The notes under the pieces are model-generated. The model saw only the letters and a list, made by a program, of their open reading frames with translations. It did not search any database and had not been told where the DNA came from. This document shows, piece after piece, positions 4,728 through 58,792 of a stretch of DNA of 64,000 nt. This DNA is from an uncultured Gammaproteobacteria bacterium (GTDB lineage Bacteria; Patescibacteriota; Patescibacteriia; JAHIZJ01). The stretch is taken from contig CAZQLY010000005.1 of NCBI GenBank assembly GCA_964594455.1, positions 1,682 through 65,681 on the forward strand, given 5' to 3'. The number at the start of each line of letters is the position of its first letter. The stretch's first letter is position 1. Position numbers and translations under genes: made by a program.

Positions 4728-4792
4728 AAATTATGTTTTTTATTAATTATCATCCCAATACCAACAAACTTAACCCAGCTAATTATACAGAG

Positions 4793-5971
4793 TTAACGCT
4801 TGTTCTTGCCAATATACTTCTTTAATACCGGGACCATATCAGTTTTTTCCCAGGTAAATCCAGCTTCATTGCGGCCGAAATGCCCATAGGCAGCAGTCTG
4901 TTTATAGATTGGTCTTTTTAAGTTAAGCTTCTTGATGATTCCAGCTGGTGTCAGATCAAAGTGTCGGCGAACAATCTTCTCTAGCTTAGAATTTGATAGC
5001 TGGCTGGTACCGAACGAATTAATCAATATACTAATCGGGTCAGCATAACCAATAACATAGGCGATCTGGACCTCACACTTCTTAGCTAAACCAGCAGCTA
5101 CTAGATTTTTGGCAACATAACGGGCCATATATGAAGCGGAGCGATCAACTTTGGAGGGATCCTTGCCAGAAAAGCATCCGCCGCCGTGGCTGCCATGACC
5201 GCCGTAGGTATCGACAATGATTTTACGACCGGTTAAACCGGCGTCAGCTGGAGGTCCGCCTTTGACGAATTTGCCGGTAGCATTGACAAATACTCTGGTT
5301 TTGGAATCAAAATATTTTCTAGCAACTGGTTTAATAACCTTTTGAGTAATGTCTCGTTCCAGCTTTTTCATATTAACCCCTTCGTCATGCTGGGTAGCCA
5401 GTACTACAGTATCAATTCGCTTAGGCTTGCCATCAACATATTCAACTGCTACTGCTGTTTTGCCATCAGGACCTAGGTAGGGCAGTGTTTTGTTTTTACG
5501 CACCTGGGCTAGACGGCGGGCCATCTTATGGGATAAGACAATCGGCAAAGGCATATATTCCGGAGTTTCGTCAGTAGCAAAGCCAAACATTAAGCCTTGA
5601 TCGCCCGCGCCCTGCTTCTTAAACTTACCCTTGCCTGCATCAACTCCTTGAGCAATATCGGGGCTTTGTTCGTCGATGGCTAAAACCACGCCGCAGTCTT
5701 CCCAATGAAAACCATATTCATGATTATCATATCCGATATCTCGAATTGTTTCTCTAACTATTTTCTGGACATCTACATAGCCCTTGGTTCTTATTTCACC
5801 AGCTACAACGACTAAGCCAGTGGTGGCCAAAACCTCACAACCGGAATGGCTTTCCGCGTCTTGGCGTAATAATTCGTCTAAAATAGCATCAGATATTTGA
5901 TCACATACTTTATCCGGATGCCCCTCAGTAACAGATTCTGAGGTAAAAATGTAACGTTCTTTGCTTTTCAT
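4793..5971 (-). CDS. metK: S-adenosylmethionine synthetase
   Basis: [24 protein letters not shown] and [16 protein letters not shown] MetK signature motifs. Confidence 0.95.
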
Positions 5972-16330: not shown

Positions 16331-17254
16331 TTATTTCAATTTGTTAATGTAGTTTTGAGCTGTCAAAAAAGCGGTAGTACCTTGCCCGGCCGCAATAACA
16401 ATCTGATTATATGGCAGGTTGGTTACATCTCCAGCCGCAAACAAGCCCGGTACTTTTGTCTCCATTAACAGATTCACTTCGGCAAAACCCACTTTGTCCG
16501 TCACCCCCAAATCTTTGATCATATCGGAATTGGGTATCACGCCAATATGGATAAACACTCCATTAACTTTAATGTTTTTGGTCTCACCAGCAGGGTCCTG
16601 ATAATCTACGCCGCTGACCGTTGGATCACCCACAATCTTAGTGGTATTAGCCTCTGAGATTAATTCTACGTTTTTAAGTTGTTTAACTTTGTCTATGTAT
16701 ACTTGCTCTCCGCGCAATTCAGCGTTTTTGTTTATCAAATATACTTTCTCGGCAATACCAGCCAACATCAGAACCGACTCCAAGGCTGAATTTCCCCCAC
16801 CGATAGTAGCCACAGTCTTATTACGGAAGAGCGGCCCATCACAGGTGGAACAATATGACACGCCTTTTTGATATAATTCTTTTTCTCCTGGTACATTCAA
16901 ATGCCTGGGTCGGACCCCAGTGGCAACAATAACTGATTTAGCTTCGAAGCTTTTATCCTGGCCATTTAAATCTTTTCCCGCTACCAAAAAACCGTCACCT
17001 TGCTTTTTGATCTTGATAATCTCAACATCATTTTCAACGTCAACATTATTGAATTTCAACTGATCGTTAAATTTCTGAGATAGGTCAATGCCTGTGGTTT
17101 CGTTAAAACCAGGATAATTACCAATCTCACCTGAGGTAGCCACTTCCCCGCCCAGTTCTTTGGCTACTAATTTGAAATTCATTTTGGCTCGAGCGGCATA
17201 GACAGCCGCAGCGGTTCCAGCAGCCGAGCCACCGATTATTAATATATCCAACAT
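16331..17254 (-). CDS. trxB: Thioredoxin-disulfide reductase
   Basis: FAD motif IIGGSAAGTAAAVYAARA, redox-active CSTCDG, and NADPH motif GGGNSA. Confidence 0.9.
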   Translation of the reverse strand: MLDILIIGGSAAGTAAAVYAARAKMNFKLVAKELGGEVATSGEIGNYPGFNETTGIDLSQKFNDQLKFNNVDVENDVEIIKIKKQGDGFLVAGKDLNGQDKSFEAKSVIVATGVRPRHLNVPGEKELYQKGVSYCSTCDGPLFRNKTVATIGGGNSALESVLMLAGIAEKVYLINKNAELRGEQVYIDKVKQLKNVELISEANTTKIVGDPTVSGVDYQDPAGETKNIKVNGVFIHIGVIPNSDMIKDLGVTDKVGFAEVNLLMETKVPGLFAAGDVTNLPYNQIVIAAGQGTTAFLTAQNYINKLK

Positions 17255-17370
17255 ATTACTTTTTTTTTAGTTGTCTTCAATGCTGCCGGACTAGGATTCG
17301 AACCTAGATTACCAGGGCCAGCCCGCCCCGCCAGCTTCGCTAATTATAAGTTTTATATTCTCAAGTAGAT

Positions 17371-17443
17371 TGCTCCGGGGCCTGGACTCGAACCAGGATT
17401 ACCAGGGCCAGAACCTAGCGTCCTACCATTAGACGACCCCGGA
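17371..17443 (-). tRNA. tRNA-Gln (anticodon CUG), intact, lying inside the intervening sequence of the outer copy
   Basis: Minus-strand sequence TCCGGGGTCGTCTAATGGTAGGACGCTAGGTTCTGGCCCTGGTAATCCTGGTTCGAGTCCAGGCCCCGGAGCA. 7-bp acceptor stem with U1:A72; D, anticodon (loop TTCTGGC) and T arms all pair. Confidence 0.85.
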
Positions 17444-17513
17444 ACAATTCACTCGAGATATTTTTTAACCTGCAGACGCAGCGGGCCGGGGAACCTGGCG
17501 TCCTACCATTAGA

Positions 17514-17546
17514 CCCGCCTCGACTTGCCGGTCTCGGCGAGGCGGG
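17514..17546 (-). repeat. GC-rich hairpin element (CCCGCCTCG-N15-CGAGGCGGG) inserted in the D-stem of the outer tRNA-Gln copy
   Basis: Perfect 9-bp inverted repeat. Same family as 40578-40648, 56798-56829 and degenerate copies at 32676-32700 and 34933-34959. Confidence 0.7.
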
Positions 17547-17570
17547 CGATCCGGCAGCAATGCAGGCAAC

Positions 17571-19112
17571 TTATCCGACCACCTTCCCACCAAAGGCTTC
17601 TAAAACCGGATCAATACTATCCTCAGTATCGGTTTCCGATTCAGTTTGCCCTTCTATTAAGACCGTGTCAACCTTCATCGCTTGGCCATATACATTTTTC
17701 AACACCTTTTCAATCCGACTGCTTAGCTTGGCTTGTTTAATTTGGTCCGCGTGAAAAGCATAATTACAACCCAGTATTAAGGTATCCCCCTCTATTTTTT
17801 CAGGTGTAACTACTTGGAATATAAGTGCCAAGGAATGATTTTCTTTCTGCATTCCTTTTAGTACCTCGCCCCACTGCGCCTTGACGTCTTCCAGGCTCAT
17901 CTTCAAATTAGCCGATTTCGATTTGCTAACAGATGTAGATTTTGGACTAATTGTATTCTGGCTGATTTTTGGGGTTGTTGACTCGGATGGCTCATCGGGC
18001 TCATTACTATCATCTCCAGTTTCACAAATTTCCACGATGGCAAGTTCTATGGGCAGCTGGGTAATATCAGAATATTTTATCTCTCTCTCTTTGTTGAGAA
18101 AGAGATTAATCGCTTTTGTCAAACGATCGAGTTCGATATTCTTCGCTTGATCAATGGCCGATTTTTCCAACTCTTGAGTAAGCTCCATGGAAGTGAAGAT
18201 GTCTAACCGACCGTTGACCTTGATCAGCAAAATCTTGCGCAAAAATTCAACTAGCTCTTTTGTAAACTGGATAAAGTTGATCCCCTCTTGTGCCAAGTTG
18301 TTAACCAAATCCAGAGCTTCTCCAGTTTTGCGTCCAGCCAAGAAATCAAAAAGCTTAACAATAGATTCTATGTTGGATCGCGGTAAAACCAAATCAGCCA
18401 TTTCTGCGGTGATCTTTTTATCTCCCAGGGTTAAAATTTGCCCCAATAGACTTTCAGCGTCACGGGCTGAGCCCTCGGCCATGCGGGCAACATTCTTCAG
18501 TATGCTTTCGTCTATTTTAATCTTCTCCTTGCTAACGATTGAGCTTAAGCGTTTAACTAGATCCGCTTGGTTTATTTTTTTGAAATCAAATCTCTGGCAT
18601 CGGGAAACGATAGTATCAGGTAAACGATGGATTTCTGTAGTGCATAAAATAAATATCGCGTACTCAGGAGGTTCTTCTAGAGTTTTCAGAAGCGCGTTAA
18701 ACGCAGCTAAGGACAACATGTGCGCTTCATCAATTATAAATACTTTATATTGCCAGCGGGACGGAGTGAAACGAGCGTTTTCTATAATATTGTCTCGGAC
18801 ATTGTCTACTCCAGTATGAGAAGCCGCGTCCATTTCAATCAAGTCCAGGGATCTGGCTGACAATATATCCTGGCAAGACTCGCAGGTACCACAAGGTTCA
18901 CTTTGATTATCTTTTCTTTTCTGACAATTGATGGCTCGAGCCAAAAGCCGGGCCGTGGTAGTCTTGCCCACTCCCCGGGGGCCAGCAAATAAATAAGCAT
19001 GGGCCAGTCTTTGACTGGTAATTTCATTTTCTAGAGTAATCTTAACGTGATTCTGGCCCAGCAGGTCGGAAAATGTCTGGGGTCTATATTTTCGATATAA
19101 TGTTTGAGACAT
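17571..19112 (-). CDS. dnaX: DNA polymerase III subunit gamma/tau
   Basis: YRPQTFSDLLGQNHV...AYLFAGPRGVGKTTTARLLA Walker A, CxxC zinc module, and SRC motif. Confidence 0.9.
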   Translation of the reverse strand: MSQTLYRKYRPQTFSDLLGQNHVKITLENEITSQRLAHAYLFAGPRGVGKTTTARLLARAINCQKRKDNQSEPCGTCESCQDILSARSLDLIEMDAASHTGVDNVRDNIIENARFTPSRWQYKVFIIDEAHMLSLAAFNALLKTLEEPPEYAIFILCTTEIHRLPDTIVSRCQRFDFKKINQADLVKRLSSIVSKEKIKIDESILKNVARMAEGSARDAESLLGQILTLGDKKITAEMADLVLPRSNIESIVKLFDFLAGRKTGEALDLVNNLAQEGINFIQFTKELVEFLRKILLIKVNGRLDIFTSMELTQELEKSAIDQAKNIELDRLTKAINLFLNKEREIKYSDITQLPIELAIVEICETGDDSNEPDEPSESTTPKISQNTISPKSTSVSKSKSANLKMSLEDVKAQWGEVLKGMQKENHSLALIFQVVTPEKIEGDTLILGCNYAFHADQIKQAKLSSRIEKVLKNVYGQAMKVDTVLIEGQTESETDTEDSIDPVLEAFGGKVVG

Positions 19113-32625: not shown

Positions 32626-32675
32626 ACGGTTATATTTCAATTTATTTTCGTATATTGTACCTCTCCACAAGCCTG

Positions 32676-32700
32676 CCCCGCCGCATGGCGGGAGTCGAGG
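32676..32700. repeat. Degenerate member of the GC hairpin family (CCCCGCC-GCAT-GGCGGG followed by AGTCGAGG)
   Basis: Shares the CCCGCC/GGCGGG arms and the GTCGAGG motif with the tRNA-associated hairpins. Confidence 0.35.
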
Positions 32701-34932: not shown

Positions 34933-34959
34933 TCAACCCATGCCCCGCCTCGATTCAGA
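34933..34959. repeat. GC hairpin family member (CCCCGCCT-N12-AGGCGGG) between hsp20 and the small ORF
   Basis: 7-bp GC arms identical to the tRNA-associated hairpin arms. Conspicuously GC-rich against AT-rich surroundings. Confidence 0.4.
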
Positions 34960-34981
34960 TCAAGGCGGGAATATTGACCGA

Positions 34982-40443: not shown

Positions 40444-40518
40444 TGGTGACCCCACGGGGAGTCGAACCCCGATTGCCAGGTTGAGAACCTGGTGTCCTAA
40501 CCATTAGACGATGGGGCC
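40444..40518 (-). tRNA. tRNA-Glu (anticodon CUC), intact
   Basis: Minus-strand GGCCCCATCGTCTAATGGTTAGGACACCAGGTTCTCAACCTGGCAATCGGGGTTCGACTCCCCGTGGGGTCACCA. All stems pair and CCA is encoded. Confidence 0.85.
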
Positions 40519-40569
40519 ATGATTAGGGCTTTAATATTCTCTATATCTTTGTGTTTCTAAATCCAAGCG

Positions 40570-40666
40570 TGTCCTAACCCGCCTCGCCCGACTTGCGCGA
40601 GCGAGTCGAGGCGGGCCCAGCCTCGACTTGCCGTCTTGGCGAGGCAGGCCATTAGACGATGGGGCC
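40570..40666 (-). pseudogene. 5' fragment of tRNA-Glu (positions about 1-26), duplicated 51 nt upstream of the intact gene and interrupted in the D-loop by two tandem GC hairpin elements
   Basis: GGCCCCATCGTCTAATGG-[33-nt hairpin][38-nt hairpin]-TTAGGACA, then diverges (CGCTTGG instead of CCAGGTT). Confidence 0.55.
40578..40648 (-). repeat. Two tandem GC hairpin elements (40578-40615: CCCGCCTCG-N20-CGAGGCGGG; 40616-40648: CCTGCCTCG-N15-CGAGGCTGG, a degenerate copy)
   Basis: Same arms and loop core (GACGGCAAGT) as the copies at 17514-17546 and 56798-56829. Confidence 0.65.
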
Positions 40667-56683: not shown

Positions 56684-56778
56684 AGCTTTTTTATTATACC
56701 AAAATATTGCCTTTCTTTCAATTATAGGCTCTTGCCAAATAATATTTATTCTGCTAGTATAGGAAAAGTTTCAAACAC

Positions 56779-56838
56779 GCGCCGTTAGCTCAGTTGGCCC
56801 GCCTCGCCGAGACGGCAAGTCGAGGCGGGTAGAGCAGT
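56779..56838 (+). pseudogene. 5' fragment of tRNA-Lys (positions about 1-26), duplicated 254 nt upstream of the intact gene, with a 32-nt GC hairpin inserted in the D-loop after G18G19
   Basis: GCGCCGTTAGCTCAGTTGG-[hairpin]-TAGAGCAGT is identical to 57093-57119 apart from the insert. Similarity also extends about 5 nt upstream (CAACACGC). Confidence 0.55.
56798..56829 (+). repeat. GC hairpin element CCCGCCTCG-CCGAGACGGCAAGT-CGAGGCGGG
   Basis: Perfect 9-bp inverted repeat. Family member. Confidence 0.7.
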
Positions 56839-56844
56839 TATTAA

Positions 56845-57102
56845 ATGATTGCTACTTACATACTGTTTAGCCAAAAAGACAGAAAAACATACGTCGGGTA
56901 TTCTTGTAATTTAACAGATAGGTTAAGAAATCATAGACTGGGACTAGTCTCAGCAACTAGAAATAGACGACCGTTGTCGCTTATAGCTTATCGACCTGCT
57001 AGTAATATCGAAGACGCAAGAAAAATAGAAAAATATTGGAAAACAGCGTCAGGGCGCAGATTCCTTAAAAAAATACTTATAGATATCAACACGCGCCGTT
57101 AG
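56845..57102 (+). CDS. Small GIY-YIG domain nuclease (85 aa, catalytic domain only)
   Basis: TYILFSQKDRKTYVGYSCNLTDRLRNH matches GIY...YIG...R..H. A downstream Glu (IEKYWK) is present. The last four codons and the stop (AAC ACG CGC CGT TAG) are the 5' end of the tRNA-Lys gene. Confidence 0.6.
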   Translation: MIATYILFSQKDRKTYVGYSCNLTDRLRNHRLGLVSATRNRRPLSLIAYRPASNIEDARKIEKYWKTASGRRFLKKILIDINTRR

Positions 57103-57168
57103 CTCAGTTGGTAGAGCAGTGGCCTTTTAAGCCAACGGTCGGGGGTTCGAATCCCTCACGGCGCACCA
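57093..57168 (+). tRNA. tRNA-Lys (anticodon UUU), intact
   Basis: GCGCCGTTAGCTCAGTTGGTAGAGCAGTGGCCTTTTAAGCCAACGGTCGGGGGTTCGAATCCCTCACGGCGCACCA. Cloverleaf pairs and CCA is encoded. Confidence 0.9.
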
Positions 57169-57731: not shown

Positions 57732-58253
57732 ATGAAAAAAAATCAGATTCTAAAAAAACTAACCGGAGGGGATCTGCGCTCGATCGGACGAGCTGACGAA
57801 GTTGCCCAGGATGTTTTGGATAATCCTGAGTTGTTTTCTAATGTTTTTGAAGGTATGAATAATGACGATCCTAGGATCCGGATGCGCAGCGCTGACGCTC
57901 TGCAGAAAGTGGCAGAAAAGCACCCGGAATATTTACAACCCCACAAGAAACAACTGCTTGACGAAATATCAAAGATTGATCAGCAAGAGGTGCAGTGGCA
58001 CGTAGCTCAAATGCTGAGCTATCTTGATTATCAATCTGAAGAGATACCAAAAGCGGTTGATATTCTGATGGAATATATTAATAAATCAGATAGCAATATA
58101 GTCATTGTCAATTCACTTCAGGCTTTAGCAGATCTGGTGGAAAAAGATCAATCACTTAAGCCAAAGGTGAAAACAATAATTGAAGACAAGATGAAATCCG
58201 GGGGACCGGCTATCTTCAGTCGAGGCAAGAAACTGCTGGAAAAAATGAATTAA
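57732..58253 (+). CDS. Hypothetical alpha-helical (HEAT/ARM-like) protein
   Basis: Repetitive helical pattern. Start codon abuts the stop of the preceding ORF. Confidence 0.35.
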   Translation: MKKNQILKKLTGGDLRSIGRADEVAQDVLDNPELFSNVFEGMNNDDPRIRMRSADALQKVAEKHPEYLQPHKKQLLDEISKIDQQEVQWHVAQMLSYLDYQSEEIPKAVDILMEYINKSDSNIVIVNSLQALADLVEKDQSLKPKVKTIIEDKMKSGGPAIFSRGKKLLEKMN

Positions 58254-58292
58254 AAAAGCTCCCTATTGAATTGAGAGCTATAGGCAGGCTGA

Positions 58293-58658
58293 TTATTCGG
58301 CCGGTTTTGAGATACGGATCCGGTGGAATTCACCGTGCCTGGTTCGAAGGTCATATATACCTTCATAGTAGACCATACCAACACGCTCAACCGGCATCTC
58401 AAAACCAATCCAATAAGAGGTTTTTATATTACCAAGACTAGTCAGGCCCAGAAAAACAACTCGGCAAGCACACAAATTGAACTCACAACCAGGTGCAGTA
58501 AAACACACTGTGTGCTGCCTAGAGAGCGAGCATAGAATGTCGAGCTCACCCGGCCCCCCAGTAACACCAATCTTGTCTGCATCACGTTCAACAACCACTT
58601 TCCCCGAAACTGTGTTGTACGAATGCCAGGGAAAAATGGTTTCGTTTCGTTCGGCCAT
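58293..58658 (-). CDS. Hypothetical Cys-containing small protein on a GC-rich island
   Basis: ORF in a region of clearly raised GC. No recognisable family. Confidence 0.35.
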   Translation of the reverse strand: MAERNETIFPWHSYNTVSGKVVVERDADKIGVTGGPGELDILCSLSRQHTVCFTAPGCEFNLCACRVVFLGLTSLGNIKTSYWIGFEMPVERVGMVYYEGIYDLRTRHGEFHRIRISKPAE

Positions 58659-58792
58659 ATCGGCACCTCCTGGTCAAAGAACTTTGCCAGAGCATATCGC
58701 TCAGACTACCCACTCAGGATGAGCAAGCTGTTTACTGTATATCGAATTTATATAGATGTCAATAAAAAACCCACACCTATGTAAGGCTGGGT

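Follow-up and report, generated by a model that had tools for sequence, protein, structure and literature searches.

A tRNA-Gln gene nested in a second tRNA-Gln gene, and the association of GC-rich hairpins, orphan tRNA copies and mini GIY-YIG nuclease genes in CPR bacteria

This study concerns a 64,000-nt stretch of DNA (hereafter the window; positions 1,682 to 65,681 of contig CAZQLY010000005.1, assembly GCA_964594455.1), in which the spacer between dnaX and trxB carries a tRNA-Gln(CUG) gene that is interrupted twice, once by a GC-rich hairpin and once by a 170-nt segment (the cassette) that contains a second, intact tRNA-Gln(CUG) gene. The contig belongs to a metagenome-assembled genome (MAG) of the Patescibacteria (Candidate Phyla Radiation, CPR), and the good homologues of its DnaX protein all come from Patescibacteria. 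The two tRNA-Gln genes are called the outer and the inner gene here, positions are those of the window, and the comparison sequences are referred to by L numbers.

The interrupted tRNA-Gln gene between dnaX and trxB

Read on the minus strand from the dnaX side, the dnaX stop codon and a 14-nt flank are followed by tRNA positions 1-9 (TGCCGGATC), the hairpin GCCCGCCTCGCCGAGACCGGCAAGTCGAGGCGG, tRNA positions 10-33 (GTCTAATGGTAGGACGCCAGGTT) and the 170-nt insert, which starts with CCCCGGCCCGC and ends with GGCGGGGCGGG. On the trxB side, the part from position 34 to the 3' end (CTGGCCCTGGTAATCTAGGTTCGAATCCTAGTCCGGCAGCA) and a 26-nt flank lead to the trxB start codon (Table 1). The original prediction had described this nested arrangement, and on re-reading of the minus strand all of its coordinates and its description hold, as does the one-base ambiguity that it gave for the split point (a single C leaves 33/34 or 34/35). 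When the minus-strand segments 17556-17548, 17514-17492 and 17321-17281 are joined, they form a perfect tRNA-Gln(CUG), and after in-silico removal of the hairpin (17547-17515) and the insert (17491-17322) ARAGORN calls a tRNA-Gln(ctg) of 72/73 nt, so that the identity proposed for the joined halves is confirmed. On the native locus, ARAGORN (intron mode included) and Rfam report the inner gene only, which means that the outer gene is undetectable unless the inserts are removed by hand.

Table 1. Positions of the features of the three tRNA loci of the window, of one intergenic hairpin, and the layout of nuclease contexts in other contigs
Feature	Position or contig	Strand	Basis
5' flank of outer tRNA-Gln (GTTGCCTGCATTGC)	17557..17570	-	sequence and fold
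Outer tRNA-Gln(CUG), positions 1-9 (TGCCGGATC)	17548..17556	-	identical to L010
33-nt GC hairpin in D-arm, site 9/10 (or 10/11)	17515..17547	-	missing from orthologous gene
Outer tRNA-Gln, positions 10-33	17492..17514	-	reconstruction and ortholog
170-nt cassette in anticodon loop (33/34)	17322..17491	-	not in any relative compared
Cassette 5' GC arm (CCCCGGCCCGC)	17481..17491	-	pairs with 17322-17332 at 9/10 positions
37-nt spacer upstream of inner tRNA	17444..17480	-	in-frame stop 5 nt before tRNA
Inner intact tRNA-Gln(CUG)	17372..17443	-	ARAGORN; Rfam, 57.3 bits
Cassette 3' GC arm (GGCGGGGCGGG)	17322..17332	-	sequence and fold
Outer tRNA-Gln, position 34 to 3' end	17281..17321	-	reconstruction, ortholog and repeat search
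Related hairpin (CCCGCCTCG...CAAGGCGGG), intergenic, 3' of hsp20	34944..34969	+	hairpin census
Orphan tRNA-Glu(CUC) 5' fragment, positions 1-18	40649..40666	-	22/22 nt including 4 nt of upstream flank, E = 4e-7
Two tandem hairpins (32 nt and 39 nt) in D-loop of orphan tRNA-Glu	40578..40648	-	hairpin census
Orphan tRNA-Glu continued, positions 19-27 (TTAGGACAC)	40569..40577	-	homology stops at 27/28
Intact tRNA-Glu(CUC)	40444..40518	-	ARAGORN, Rfam; starts 50 nt past orphan fragment
Orphan tRNA-Lys(UUU) 5' fragment, from 5 nt upstream to position 19	56774..56797	+	24/24, E = 2.5e-8
32-nt hairpin CCCGCCTCGCCGAGACGGCAAGTCGAGGCGGG in D-loop of orphan tRNA-Lys	56798..56829	+	1-nt indel relative to Gln copy
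Orphan tRNA-Lys continued, positions 20-27/28 (TAGAGCAGT)	56830..56838	+	sequence
85-aa GIY-YIG nuclease gene	56845..57102	+	Pfam PF01541, E = 1.8e-11
Intact tRNA-Lys(UUU)	57093..57168	+	ARAGORN, Rfam
tRNA-Ser(GGA): GGAGAGGTCGCAT (positions 1-13), 29-nt GC double hairpin, ~7 more tRNA nt, nuclease gene	L020		
tRNA-Ser(TGA): GGAGGCGTG (positions 1-9), 30-nt double hairpin at 9/10, CCAGAG, 15 nt, nuclease gene	L024		
tRNA-Cys: intact tRNA-Cys and nuclease gene between two tRNA-Cys copies with interior hairpin CCCGCCTTTGTTTTCGGCGGG	L015		E = 1e-15 to 1e-17
tRNA-Tyr: nuclease gene ends 6 nt before tRNA-Tyr	L007		
tRNA-Ile/tRNA-Val: nuclease gene between both, GC hairpin 9 nt before ATG, no detectable fragment	L021-23		
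No tRNA nearby: nuclease gene within glycosyltransferase operon	L016-19		

The dnaX regions of relatives with DnaX identities of 78% (L008), 68% (L009), 67% (L010/L011) and 61% (L012) were compared with the window. The gene order is conserved (TraG-like gene, methyltransferase, hypothetical gene, dnaX, trxB, DUF2207), and the dnaX-trxB spacer is 168-179 nt long in L009, L010/L011 and L012-14, compared with 316 nt in the window. Each of these shorter spacers contains exactly one tRNA-Gln(CTG) gene, which is uninterrupted, and neither family hairpins nor tRNA fragments were found at these dnaX loci. The joined outer halves are identical at 72 of 72 positions to the tRNA-Gln of L010/L011, which lies at the syntenic dnaX-trxB site and scores 62.5 bits on the Rfam tRNA model. 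From this identity at the syntenic site, the outer gene is the ancestral resident, into which the hairpin and the 170-nt segment were inserted. The same identity means that the match of the two flanking parts is not coincidental, and together with the uninterrupted genes and shorter spacers of the relatives it bears out the earlier proposal that an insertion split one tRNA-Gln copy. At this site, the cassette is thus polymorphic for presence and absence, being found in the window and not in L009, L010/L011 or L012-14.

The inner gene is of a different type. Of its 72 positions, 12 differ from those of the outer gene, and most of these lie in the acceptor and T stems; only 5 differ from the resident gene of L012, whose acceptor stem (TCCGGGG/CCCCGGA) it shares. 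Being nearer to the L012 allele, it is a different allele of a type known from a related lineage and not a local duplicate of the outer gene. Compared with the outer gene, the tRNA-Gln alleles show 0 differences in L010 (DnaX identity 67%), 20 in L009 (68%) and 11 in L012 (61%). Such alleles, which do not track the DnaX/TrxB distances, would be the pattern expected from repeated gene replacement, with four taxa being too few for a firm statement. No homology was detected between the cassette flanks and the spacers of the relatives outside the tRNA body.

Two other contigs reach the locus. The only other assembly of the strain (L001, a 2.3-kb trxB contig) starts at window position 17318, 3 nt into the 3' half, and the contig of the 78% relative (L008) ends right after TGCCGGA and is uninformative on the interruption. 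Breaks at these points could reflect polymorphism in the population, loss of coverage at GC hairpins, or chance.

The predicted fold of the 304-nt transcript is fully nested (-150 kcal/mol) and comprises the extended flank helix, the outer acceptor stem, the D-arm hairpin, the outer anticodon stem, a helix of the two GC arms of the cassette, an extended helix of the inner tRNA and the outer T-arm. The D-arm hairpin has the stem CCCGCCTCG/CGAGGCGGG and the loop CCGAGACCGGCAAGT (-21.4 kcal/mol), and the cassette ends CCCGGCCCGC and GCGGGGCGGG, which are complementary at 9 of 10 positions, are paired in the minimum free energy structure. In the predicted fold, release of the inner tRNA by RNase P and RNase Z would leave the outer halves held together by ~30 bp. 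A single internal loop, with the anticodon stem on one side and the GC-arm helix on the other, contains both exon-insert junctions. Since the junctions face each other across this loop, they do not form a bulge-helix-bulge (BHB) motif, which has two 3-nt bulges and a 4-bp helix and which had been suggested as something to look for in the spacer with its exon context.

The search for introns was negative as well. A permissive Rfam cmscan (E up to 5) of 17150-17700 returned the inner tRNA only, with no intron, ribozyme or group I core, and the whole-window Rfam scan at the gathering threshold returned three tRNAs and nothing else. The analogy to bacterial group I introns drawn in the original prediction therefore fails at the level of the core. 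It also fails at the level of gene structure, since the relatives have an uninterrupted gene, so that the interrupted structure is not conserved, and since the insert carries an intact isoacceptor, so that the interrupted gene is not the only copy of the tRNA.

The flanks of the outer gene pair with each other too: 17557-17570 pairs with the 3' flank 17270-17283 at 11 of 14 positions, giving a longer acceptor helix. Generally, tRNA-Gln flanks in this clade lengthen the acceptor helix by 5-14 bp, and the sequences vary among genomes with the pairing kept. Such flank-extended helices exist at the outer gene, in the dnaX-trxB spacers of L010 and L012, and at the inner gene (17444-17465 with 17350-17371). 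They could signal pre-tRNA processing, terminate dnaX or mark where a mobile unit ends. A promoter and terminator scan of the Gln locus found none.

GC hairpins, orphan tRNA copies and the mini GIY-YIG nuclease gene

In the 64 kb of the window, a census detected only seven GC-rich hairpins, and a single family has six members when one weaker copy is counted. The hairpin family described in the original prediction is real: near-identical copies lie at 40617-40648, 40578-40616 and 56798-56829, and a related copy at 34944-34969. Four of the six family hairpins are located in the D-arms of orphan tRNA copies, which make up ~100-130 nt of tRNA-fragment DNA, and such clustering has a probability of ~1e-5 to 3e-6 even when the target is restricted to the 4.5 kb of non-coding DNA. 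All four are in tRNA-sense orientation. The hairpin copies differ from each other by 0-3 positions, and empty sites exist for them, namely L010 for Gln and the adjacent intact genes for Lys and Glu. A loose TNG^T context is all that the three tRNA insertions have in common, and the other hairpin copies lack it.

Each of the three tRNA genes of the window (Gln, Glu and Lys) has next to it an orphan 5' copy whose D-arm contains a family hairpin. The original prediction had missed the lesions at Glu and Lys and the nuclease gene at the latter. In the orphan tRNA-Glu, two hairpins (CCTGCCTCGCCAAGACGGCAAGTCGAGGCTGG and GCCCGCCTCGACTCGCTCGCGCAAGTCGGGCGAGGCGGG) are inserted after G18-G19. The orphan Glu and Lys fragments have no 3' partner and cannot become tRNAs. 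At the Lys locus, the nuclease gene starts 6 nt past the orphan fragment and its stop codon is inside the intact tRNA-Lys; thus the 3' end of the nuclease gene overlaps the 5' end of tRNA-Lys, and it is exactly that segment which is repeated upstream. The Gln and Lys loci have a common order: a 5' piece of the resident with the D-arm hairpin, inserted DNA, and an intact tRNA. They differ in that the Gln locus has no ORF (open reading frame) and in that its incoming tRNA is complete and divergent, which is why the 3' half of the resident survives downstream.

The 37-nt spacer upstream of the inner tRNA-Gln contains a GGTTAAAAAATATC motif that resembles the conserved ...RRFLKNI/KYLLKN 3' ends of GIY-YIG genes. 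Its best alignments are with the 3' ends of three family ORFs (p only ~0.03-0.18), and it is possibly the remnant of a lost nuclease ORF.

The protein of 85 aa from the Lys locus consists of the GIY-YIG catalytic domain only, is UPF0213/Slx1-like, and retains the family's conserved residues Y5, Y16, G18, R26, H30 and E62. A profile of 29 family members matches best to PDB entries 1zg2 (1.6e-13) and 1ywl (UPF0213), then to Slx1, with I-TevI only at 7e-4, and the NCBIfam group I intron endonuclease model gives 17.6 bits versus a cut-off of 56. This catalytic-only, Slx1-like profile indicates a mini-nuclease instead of a typical two-domain homing endonuclease. The family is large, with 8,144 representatives (50% identity clusters, E <= 1e-10), nearly all of 80-125 aa. 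A PHROG search with the nuclease family gave no match, and an exact look-up of the protein of the window gave no record. A lead may come from the 2006 survey of the superfamily, which reported just one case of an Slx1-like GIY-YIG domain being fused to a TrmH-type tRNA Gm18 (D-loop) methyltransferase and cautioned that it perhaps reflects mere domain mobility (PMC1564403).

Seven independent genomic contexts of the nuclease family were examined, the window included. A hairpin-disrupted tRNA copy, a nuclease gene and an intact tRNA of the same kind follow each other in four of them (five with L007), and a GC hairpin lies 9-21 nt upstream of the ATG in five. For example, in L020 the intact tRNA-Ser begins 7 nt after the nuclease gene and with the same 13 nt as the fragment. 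In L024 the nuclease gene is separated by 5 nt from the intact tRNA-Ser, and the hairpin site (9/10) is that of the outer tRNA-Gln. In L015 the downstream tRNA-Cys copy also repeats 21 nt of the 3' flank. The nuclease stop codon is 5-7 nt before the tRNA in three loci, which can be set beside the in-frame stop 5 nt before the inner tRNA-Gln.

Some of these contigs have further peculiarities. A cluster of GC-rich hairpin repeats (TTCGCCTCGCCGAAGCCCG...CGGGCTTCGC...) occupies 5357-5450 of L020, directly 3' of the intact tRNA-Ser. L015 holds three tRNA-Cys-related copies within 600 nt (4730-5334), and in the two flanking copies the hairpin CCCGCCTTTGTTTTCGGCGGG replaces the segment from the anticodon to the T-loop; this layout looks like the product of a single crossover (Campbell-type) or of repeated invasion. 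L031 (302-391) and L033 contain an identical nuclease gene (0 differences in 249 nt) followed by positions 1-44 of tRNA-Ser(TGA), and units of this type are joined to three different tRNA 3' parts and flanks across samples. In L031, the chimeric tRNA-Ser has two acceptor-stem mismatches and is abutted by a recombinase-like coiled-coil ORF. L031/L033 look like proof of cassette mobility and are nevertheless left out of the evidence here, as a classical integrative element could account for them, given the abutting recombinase-like ORF; probably a second, integrase-type element targets the 3' half of the same tRNA-Ser in L031.

The hairpins are also found away from tRNA genes. The copy at 34944-34969, which follows hsp20, means that the family is not confined to tRNA fragments. 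It and the remaining family hairpin of the window, at 32672-32692 (both on the plus strand, with CCCGCC/GGCGGG-type stems), are intergenic and lie just 3' of hsp20 and dnaK, respectively, which are minus-strand genes; possibly they serve as stems at transcript ends. When the hairpins outside tRNAs were deleted in silico, no cryptic tRNA came to light.

Beyond the window, an identical 26-27-nt hairpin core is present in five other contigs. A pattern scan of the representatives of a genome collection (the genome of the window not included) gave one match, in a MAG labelled Pirellulales, a scan of metagenomes gave four matches, none of them inside a tRNA, and a scan of viral contigs gave none. 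In the Pirellulales-labelled MAG (L002 811-837, the same as L003), the identical 27-nt core lies in AT-rich intergenic DNA, enclosed by an inverted repeat longer than itself (AACACGAGC...GCTCGTGTT); either the core has spread widely between lineages by horizontal transfer or the contig is mis-binned. In L004 (11498-11523, minus strand, the same as L005), the core is part of the gene for a 564-aa TraG/VirD4-like protein. There it encodes, in frame, ...PPASPRRQVEAG... in the C-terminal tail, directly behind a CxxC...CxxC zinc-ribbon motif, so the hairpin is tolerable within coding sequence. The copy of L006 is intergenic.

A further part of the window, 58250-58750, has a raised G+C content (0.46 for the 58-60 kb bin). 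Its ORFs, found on either strand, are all short, overlap each other and lack Pfam matches. The stretch might be a structured RNA gene that has escaped recognition; nothing in it passes the Rfam gathering threshold.

Origin of the nested tRNA-Gln locus and alternative explanations

Judged by the comparison with relatives, the outer tRNA-Gln(CUG) is very probably the ancestral resident that was inactivated by two insertions, the inner gene being the working gene and the outer halves a very young pseudogene. The whole reading that we favour, in which the inactivated resident was replaced by a tRNA from an ORF-less cassette that invades tRNA genes, is somewhat more than an even proposition in our judgement. 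Whether the cassette would be an ORF-less derivative of a selfish CPR family, in which a mini GIY-YIG gene sits beside a tRNA gene, is close to evenly balanced. More tentatively, the UPF0213/Slx1-like mini GIY-YIG proteins of CPR bacteria might be the nucleases of an undescribed class of selfish elements that home into tRNA genes with a GC hairpin and supply tRNA sequence as a replacement. If this is true, such elements overwrite or exchange tRNA alleles horizontally and leave hairpin-marked orphans behind, and the Gln locus is an ORF-less fossil of the process.

The proposed mechanism would have three steps. First, the nuclease, or host recombination at hairpins, would cut the resident tRNA gene between the D-arm and the anticodon region. 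Second, repair from a donor that bears the cassette would install the nuclease gene together with a complete tRNA, by which the essential function would be regained and the 5' part of the resident (at Gln, the 3' part too) would be orphaned. Third, the nuclease gene would decay later, as supposed for the Glu and Gln loci; loss of the nuclease gene is the usual life cycle of homing elements. The GC hairpins would be a co-travelling mobile repeat that ends up in the D-arm of the orphan copy in tRNA-sense orientation. There, the hairpin would preferably serve to destroy the nuclease target in the orphan and/or to shorten the direct repeat; otherwise, it might be merely tolerated in the orphan or might act as a stabilising stem in the 5'-UTR (untranslated region) of the nuclease mRNA.

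Several observations weigh against this favoured reading. As to the nuclease, the protein of 85 aa has no DNA-binding domain and is closer to UPF0213/Slx1 than to I-TevI, so that sequence-specific homing is putative only, and an Slx1-like enzyme may instead recognise extruded hairpins or cloverleaf-like DNA. No nuclease gene or significant remnant was found at the Gln and Glu loci (none by tblastn, and nucleotide alignments were not significant). The intact tRNA beside the nuclease gene keeps a normal D-arm, and the favoured reading gives no account of how the carrier genome would be immune. Nor does it account for the origin of the complementary GC arms of the 170-nt cassette, to which nothing at the other loci corresponds. 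The zero substitutions in the outer halves fit a recent event and are equally predicted by continued function. Both short-read contigs that reach the Gln locus break within 3 nt of the insertion points, so that no independent assembly spans the junctions. The upstream tRNA-Tyr-like piece with a GC insert in L007 (blocks of 14/17 and 9/10) is no better than shuffled sequences, a tRNA fragment is missing from two of the seven GIY-YIG contexts (L021, which is flanked by two tRNAs, and L016, which is not near any tRNA), and the seven contexts are a sample from a family of >8,000 clusters.

The alternative that fares best, which we nevertheless regard as unlikely, puts the hairpins first. GC hairpins similar to miniature inverted-repeat transposable elements (MITEs) would insert preferentially in tRNA DNA (D-arm or anticodon loop) and kill the gene; survival would need a second copy, either present already or gained by local duplication or gene transfer, and the GIY-YIG gene would be a passenger that merely favours tRNA-adjacent sites. 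Such independence of the nuclease would agree with hairpin copies that lie off tRNAs and have no nuclease gene (34944-34969, the TraG-like tail of L004, and the intergenic copies of L002 and L006), with the same 26-27-nt core in unrelated contigs, and with the Gln and Glu loci, which have hairpins and no ORF. A hit to tRNA-Gln(CUG) or tRNA-Glu(CUC) might also be survivable, these tRNAs being maybe dispensable if UUG and UUC isoacceptors exist. The same cannot be said of tRNA-Lys(UUU), which is not dispensable. Moreover, independent insertion does not explain why at five loci the hairpin is 6-9 nt from the left junction of the insert and 9-21 nt from the nuclease start, or why the Lys and Glu orphans are both truncated exactly at 27/28. 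A transposase that could move the hairpins would be expected, and searches of the ORFs of the window, which is part of the genome only, found no Y1 (HUH), RAYT or IS200/IS605 transposase.

A second alternative takes up the source of tRNA halves that the original prediction had named: a single nested precursor would be transcribed from the locus, the inner tRNA would be freed by RNase P and RNase Z, and the annealed outer halves would be a stable by-product that serves as regulatory or decoy RNA. Nothing seen at the locus points to a function of the halves. The 304-nt fold, which forms every outer helix and the GC-arm helix in addition, would suit this proposal, and so would the preserved extended flanking helix and the absence of substitutions in the outer halves relative to the ortholog. 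A recent insertion explains the zero substitutions equally well, however, and decoding by the annealed halves is implausible, because the anticodon would lie in an internal loop capped by a long helix. With the 33-nt hairpin in the D-arm and the absence of any 3' half at the Glu and Lys loci added, we consider this alternative improbable.

The original prediction had also raised a functional outer tRNA that needs two non-canonical excisions, which would make both inserts novel introns removed by an unknown bacterial excision-ligation system. CPR bacteria do remove insertions from rRNA, both inserts are self-contained helices that project from the cloverleaf, and the exons have no substitutions. 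Several points nevertheless speak against this explanation, which is very improbable: there is neither an intron or ribozyme in the permissive Rfam scan nor a BHB geometry; identical hairpins sit in truncated fragments without a 3' partner that are unable to be tRNAs; and an intact isoacceptor inside the insert makes the outer gene redundant. A weaker point is that no RNA ligase, splicing endonuclease, integrase/recombinase or transposase was found among 66/70 ORFs of the window (E <= 1e-8), the 64 kb being part of the genome.

Scars of genomic islands that were inserted into tRNA genes by an integrase deserve mention because tRNA genes are classic integration sites, partial direct repeats of a tRNA are the classic scar, and in L031 a recombinase-like ORF abuts the chimeric tRNA-Ser. 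Here they are just as improbable and largely refuted within the window, where no integrase or recombinase was found: only 50-260 nt lie between the repeats, with no recombinase, the repeats are 5' parts of tRNAs instead of the usual 3' parts, and the Gln locus has a whole foreign tRNA in the anticodon loop and no direct repeat. An artefact of MAG assembly, such as the stitching of two strain alleles, hardly comes into question, for although the source is a MAG contig and the insertion junctions lie within 3 nt of contig breaks in the short-read assemblies of the strain and of the 78% relative, 98 nt of unique spacer and complementary GC arms would not arise from a strain bubble, and the architecture recurs at three loci of the window and in independent assemblies of other projects.

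Implications and comparison with known systems

The favoured reading would matter in several respects. For annotation, tRNA finders miss the disrupted resident gene and the orphans, and short-read assemblies break at such places, so that tRNA sets and synteny of CPR genomes can be misread. For protein function, the very large family of ~85-aa GIY-YIG proteins gains a concrete candidate role as selfish nucleases associated with tRNA genes. For evolution, the loci suggest that mobile cassettes may invade and replace essential single-copy tRNA genes even in genomes of ~1 Mb, and replacement by cassettes would explain why the tRNA-Gln alleles do not follow the species tree. Potentially, a tiny nuclease for tRNA-gene or hairpin DNA and a precisely inserting 32-nt hairpin would be useful tools if the mechanisms are worked out.

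A search of the available literature found no description of mini GIY-YIG genes in duplicated CPR tRNA genes, of GC hairpins in the D-arms of bacterial tRNAs, or of a nested tRNA. Several known systems are similar in part.

The closest one is found in phages. SegB of T4 is a GIY-YIG homing endonuclease encoded among tRNA genes, which recognises a tRNA-gene motif and co-converts neighbouring tRNA genes (PMC2330249). It also drives a recombination-dependent duplication of tRNA plus segB, in which the 3' end of segB shares microhomology with the start of the tRNA at its 5' end (PMC13096335). The likeness to SegB of T4/T6 is a GIY-YIG gene beside tRNA genes, and at our Lys locus the nuclease stop codon is inside the tRNA and that segment is duplicated upstream. 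In contrast, SegB is a phage protein with a DNA-binding region, while here a catalytic-only domain of 85 aa is predicted in a cellular CPR genome, and SegB loci have not been described with GC hairpins in orphan tRNA copies or with a tRNA nested in a tRNA. Of the hallmarks of Seg-like proteins, the catalytic domain and residues are found at the Lys locus only, and the added DNA-binding domain is missing.

The displacement of part of a resident gene is known from organelles. Fungal mitochondrial genes exist that have acquired a foreign end together with a GIY-YIG ORF, next to the displaced fragment of the resident. As here, the invading nuclease cassette carries a copy of its target, function is kept, and the resident part becomes a pseudogene fragment. 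The targets there are protein-coding genes of mitochondria, whereas here they are bacterial tRNA genes, and at Gln a whole gene has been put into the middle of the resident.

The hairpins themselves can be compared with mobile hairpins of other AT-rich genomes, namely the GC clusters of yeast mitochondria, double-hairpin elements, the repetitive hairpin-forming elements of sponges (PMC2800124), Rickettsia palindromic elements and repetitive extragenic palindromes (REPs). Like these, the hairpins described here are GC-rich, near-identical and ~30-40 nt long, occur in intergenic DNA, RNA genes and in-frame in proteins, and are sometimes in tandem (Glu). Near-identical copies, precise insertion relative to empty sites and presence in several genomes place them in the class of mobile GC hairpins. 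They have no sequence relation to the known ones, and they differ in their bias to the D-arms of orphan tRNAs, in their fixed orientation and in their association with a mini GIY-YIG gene.

Integrative elements that target tRNA genes also insert in the gene, restore an intact tRNA from the element and leave a partial repeat, with the difference that here there is no integrase, the inserts are of 50-260 nt, the 5' part is duplicated, and no direct repeat exists at Gln. With the split and intron-containing tRNAs of archaea (Nanoarchaeum, BHB) and with bacterial group I introns, the Gln locus shares the break beside the anticodon and the GC-rich complements that could join halves. In this case, however, the host is bacterial, neither a BHB motif nor a group I core is present, the intervening DNA is a gene for the same tRNA, and the comparative data indicate a recent DNA insertion instead of a conserved gene structure. 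In summary, each component of these loci has known relatives, and the Gln locus seems to exemplify a recurring, apparently undescribed form of selfish DNA which invades tRNA genes and provides a working copy.

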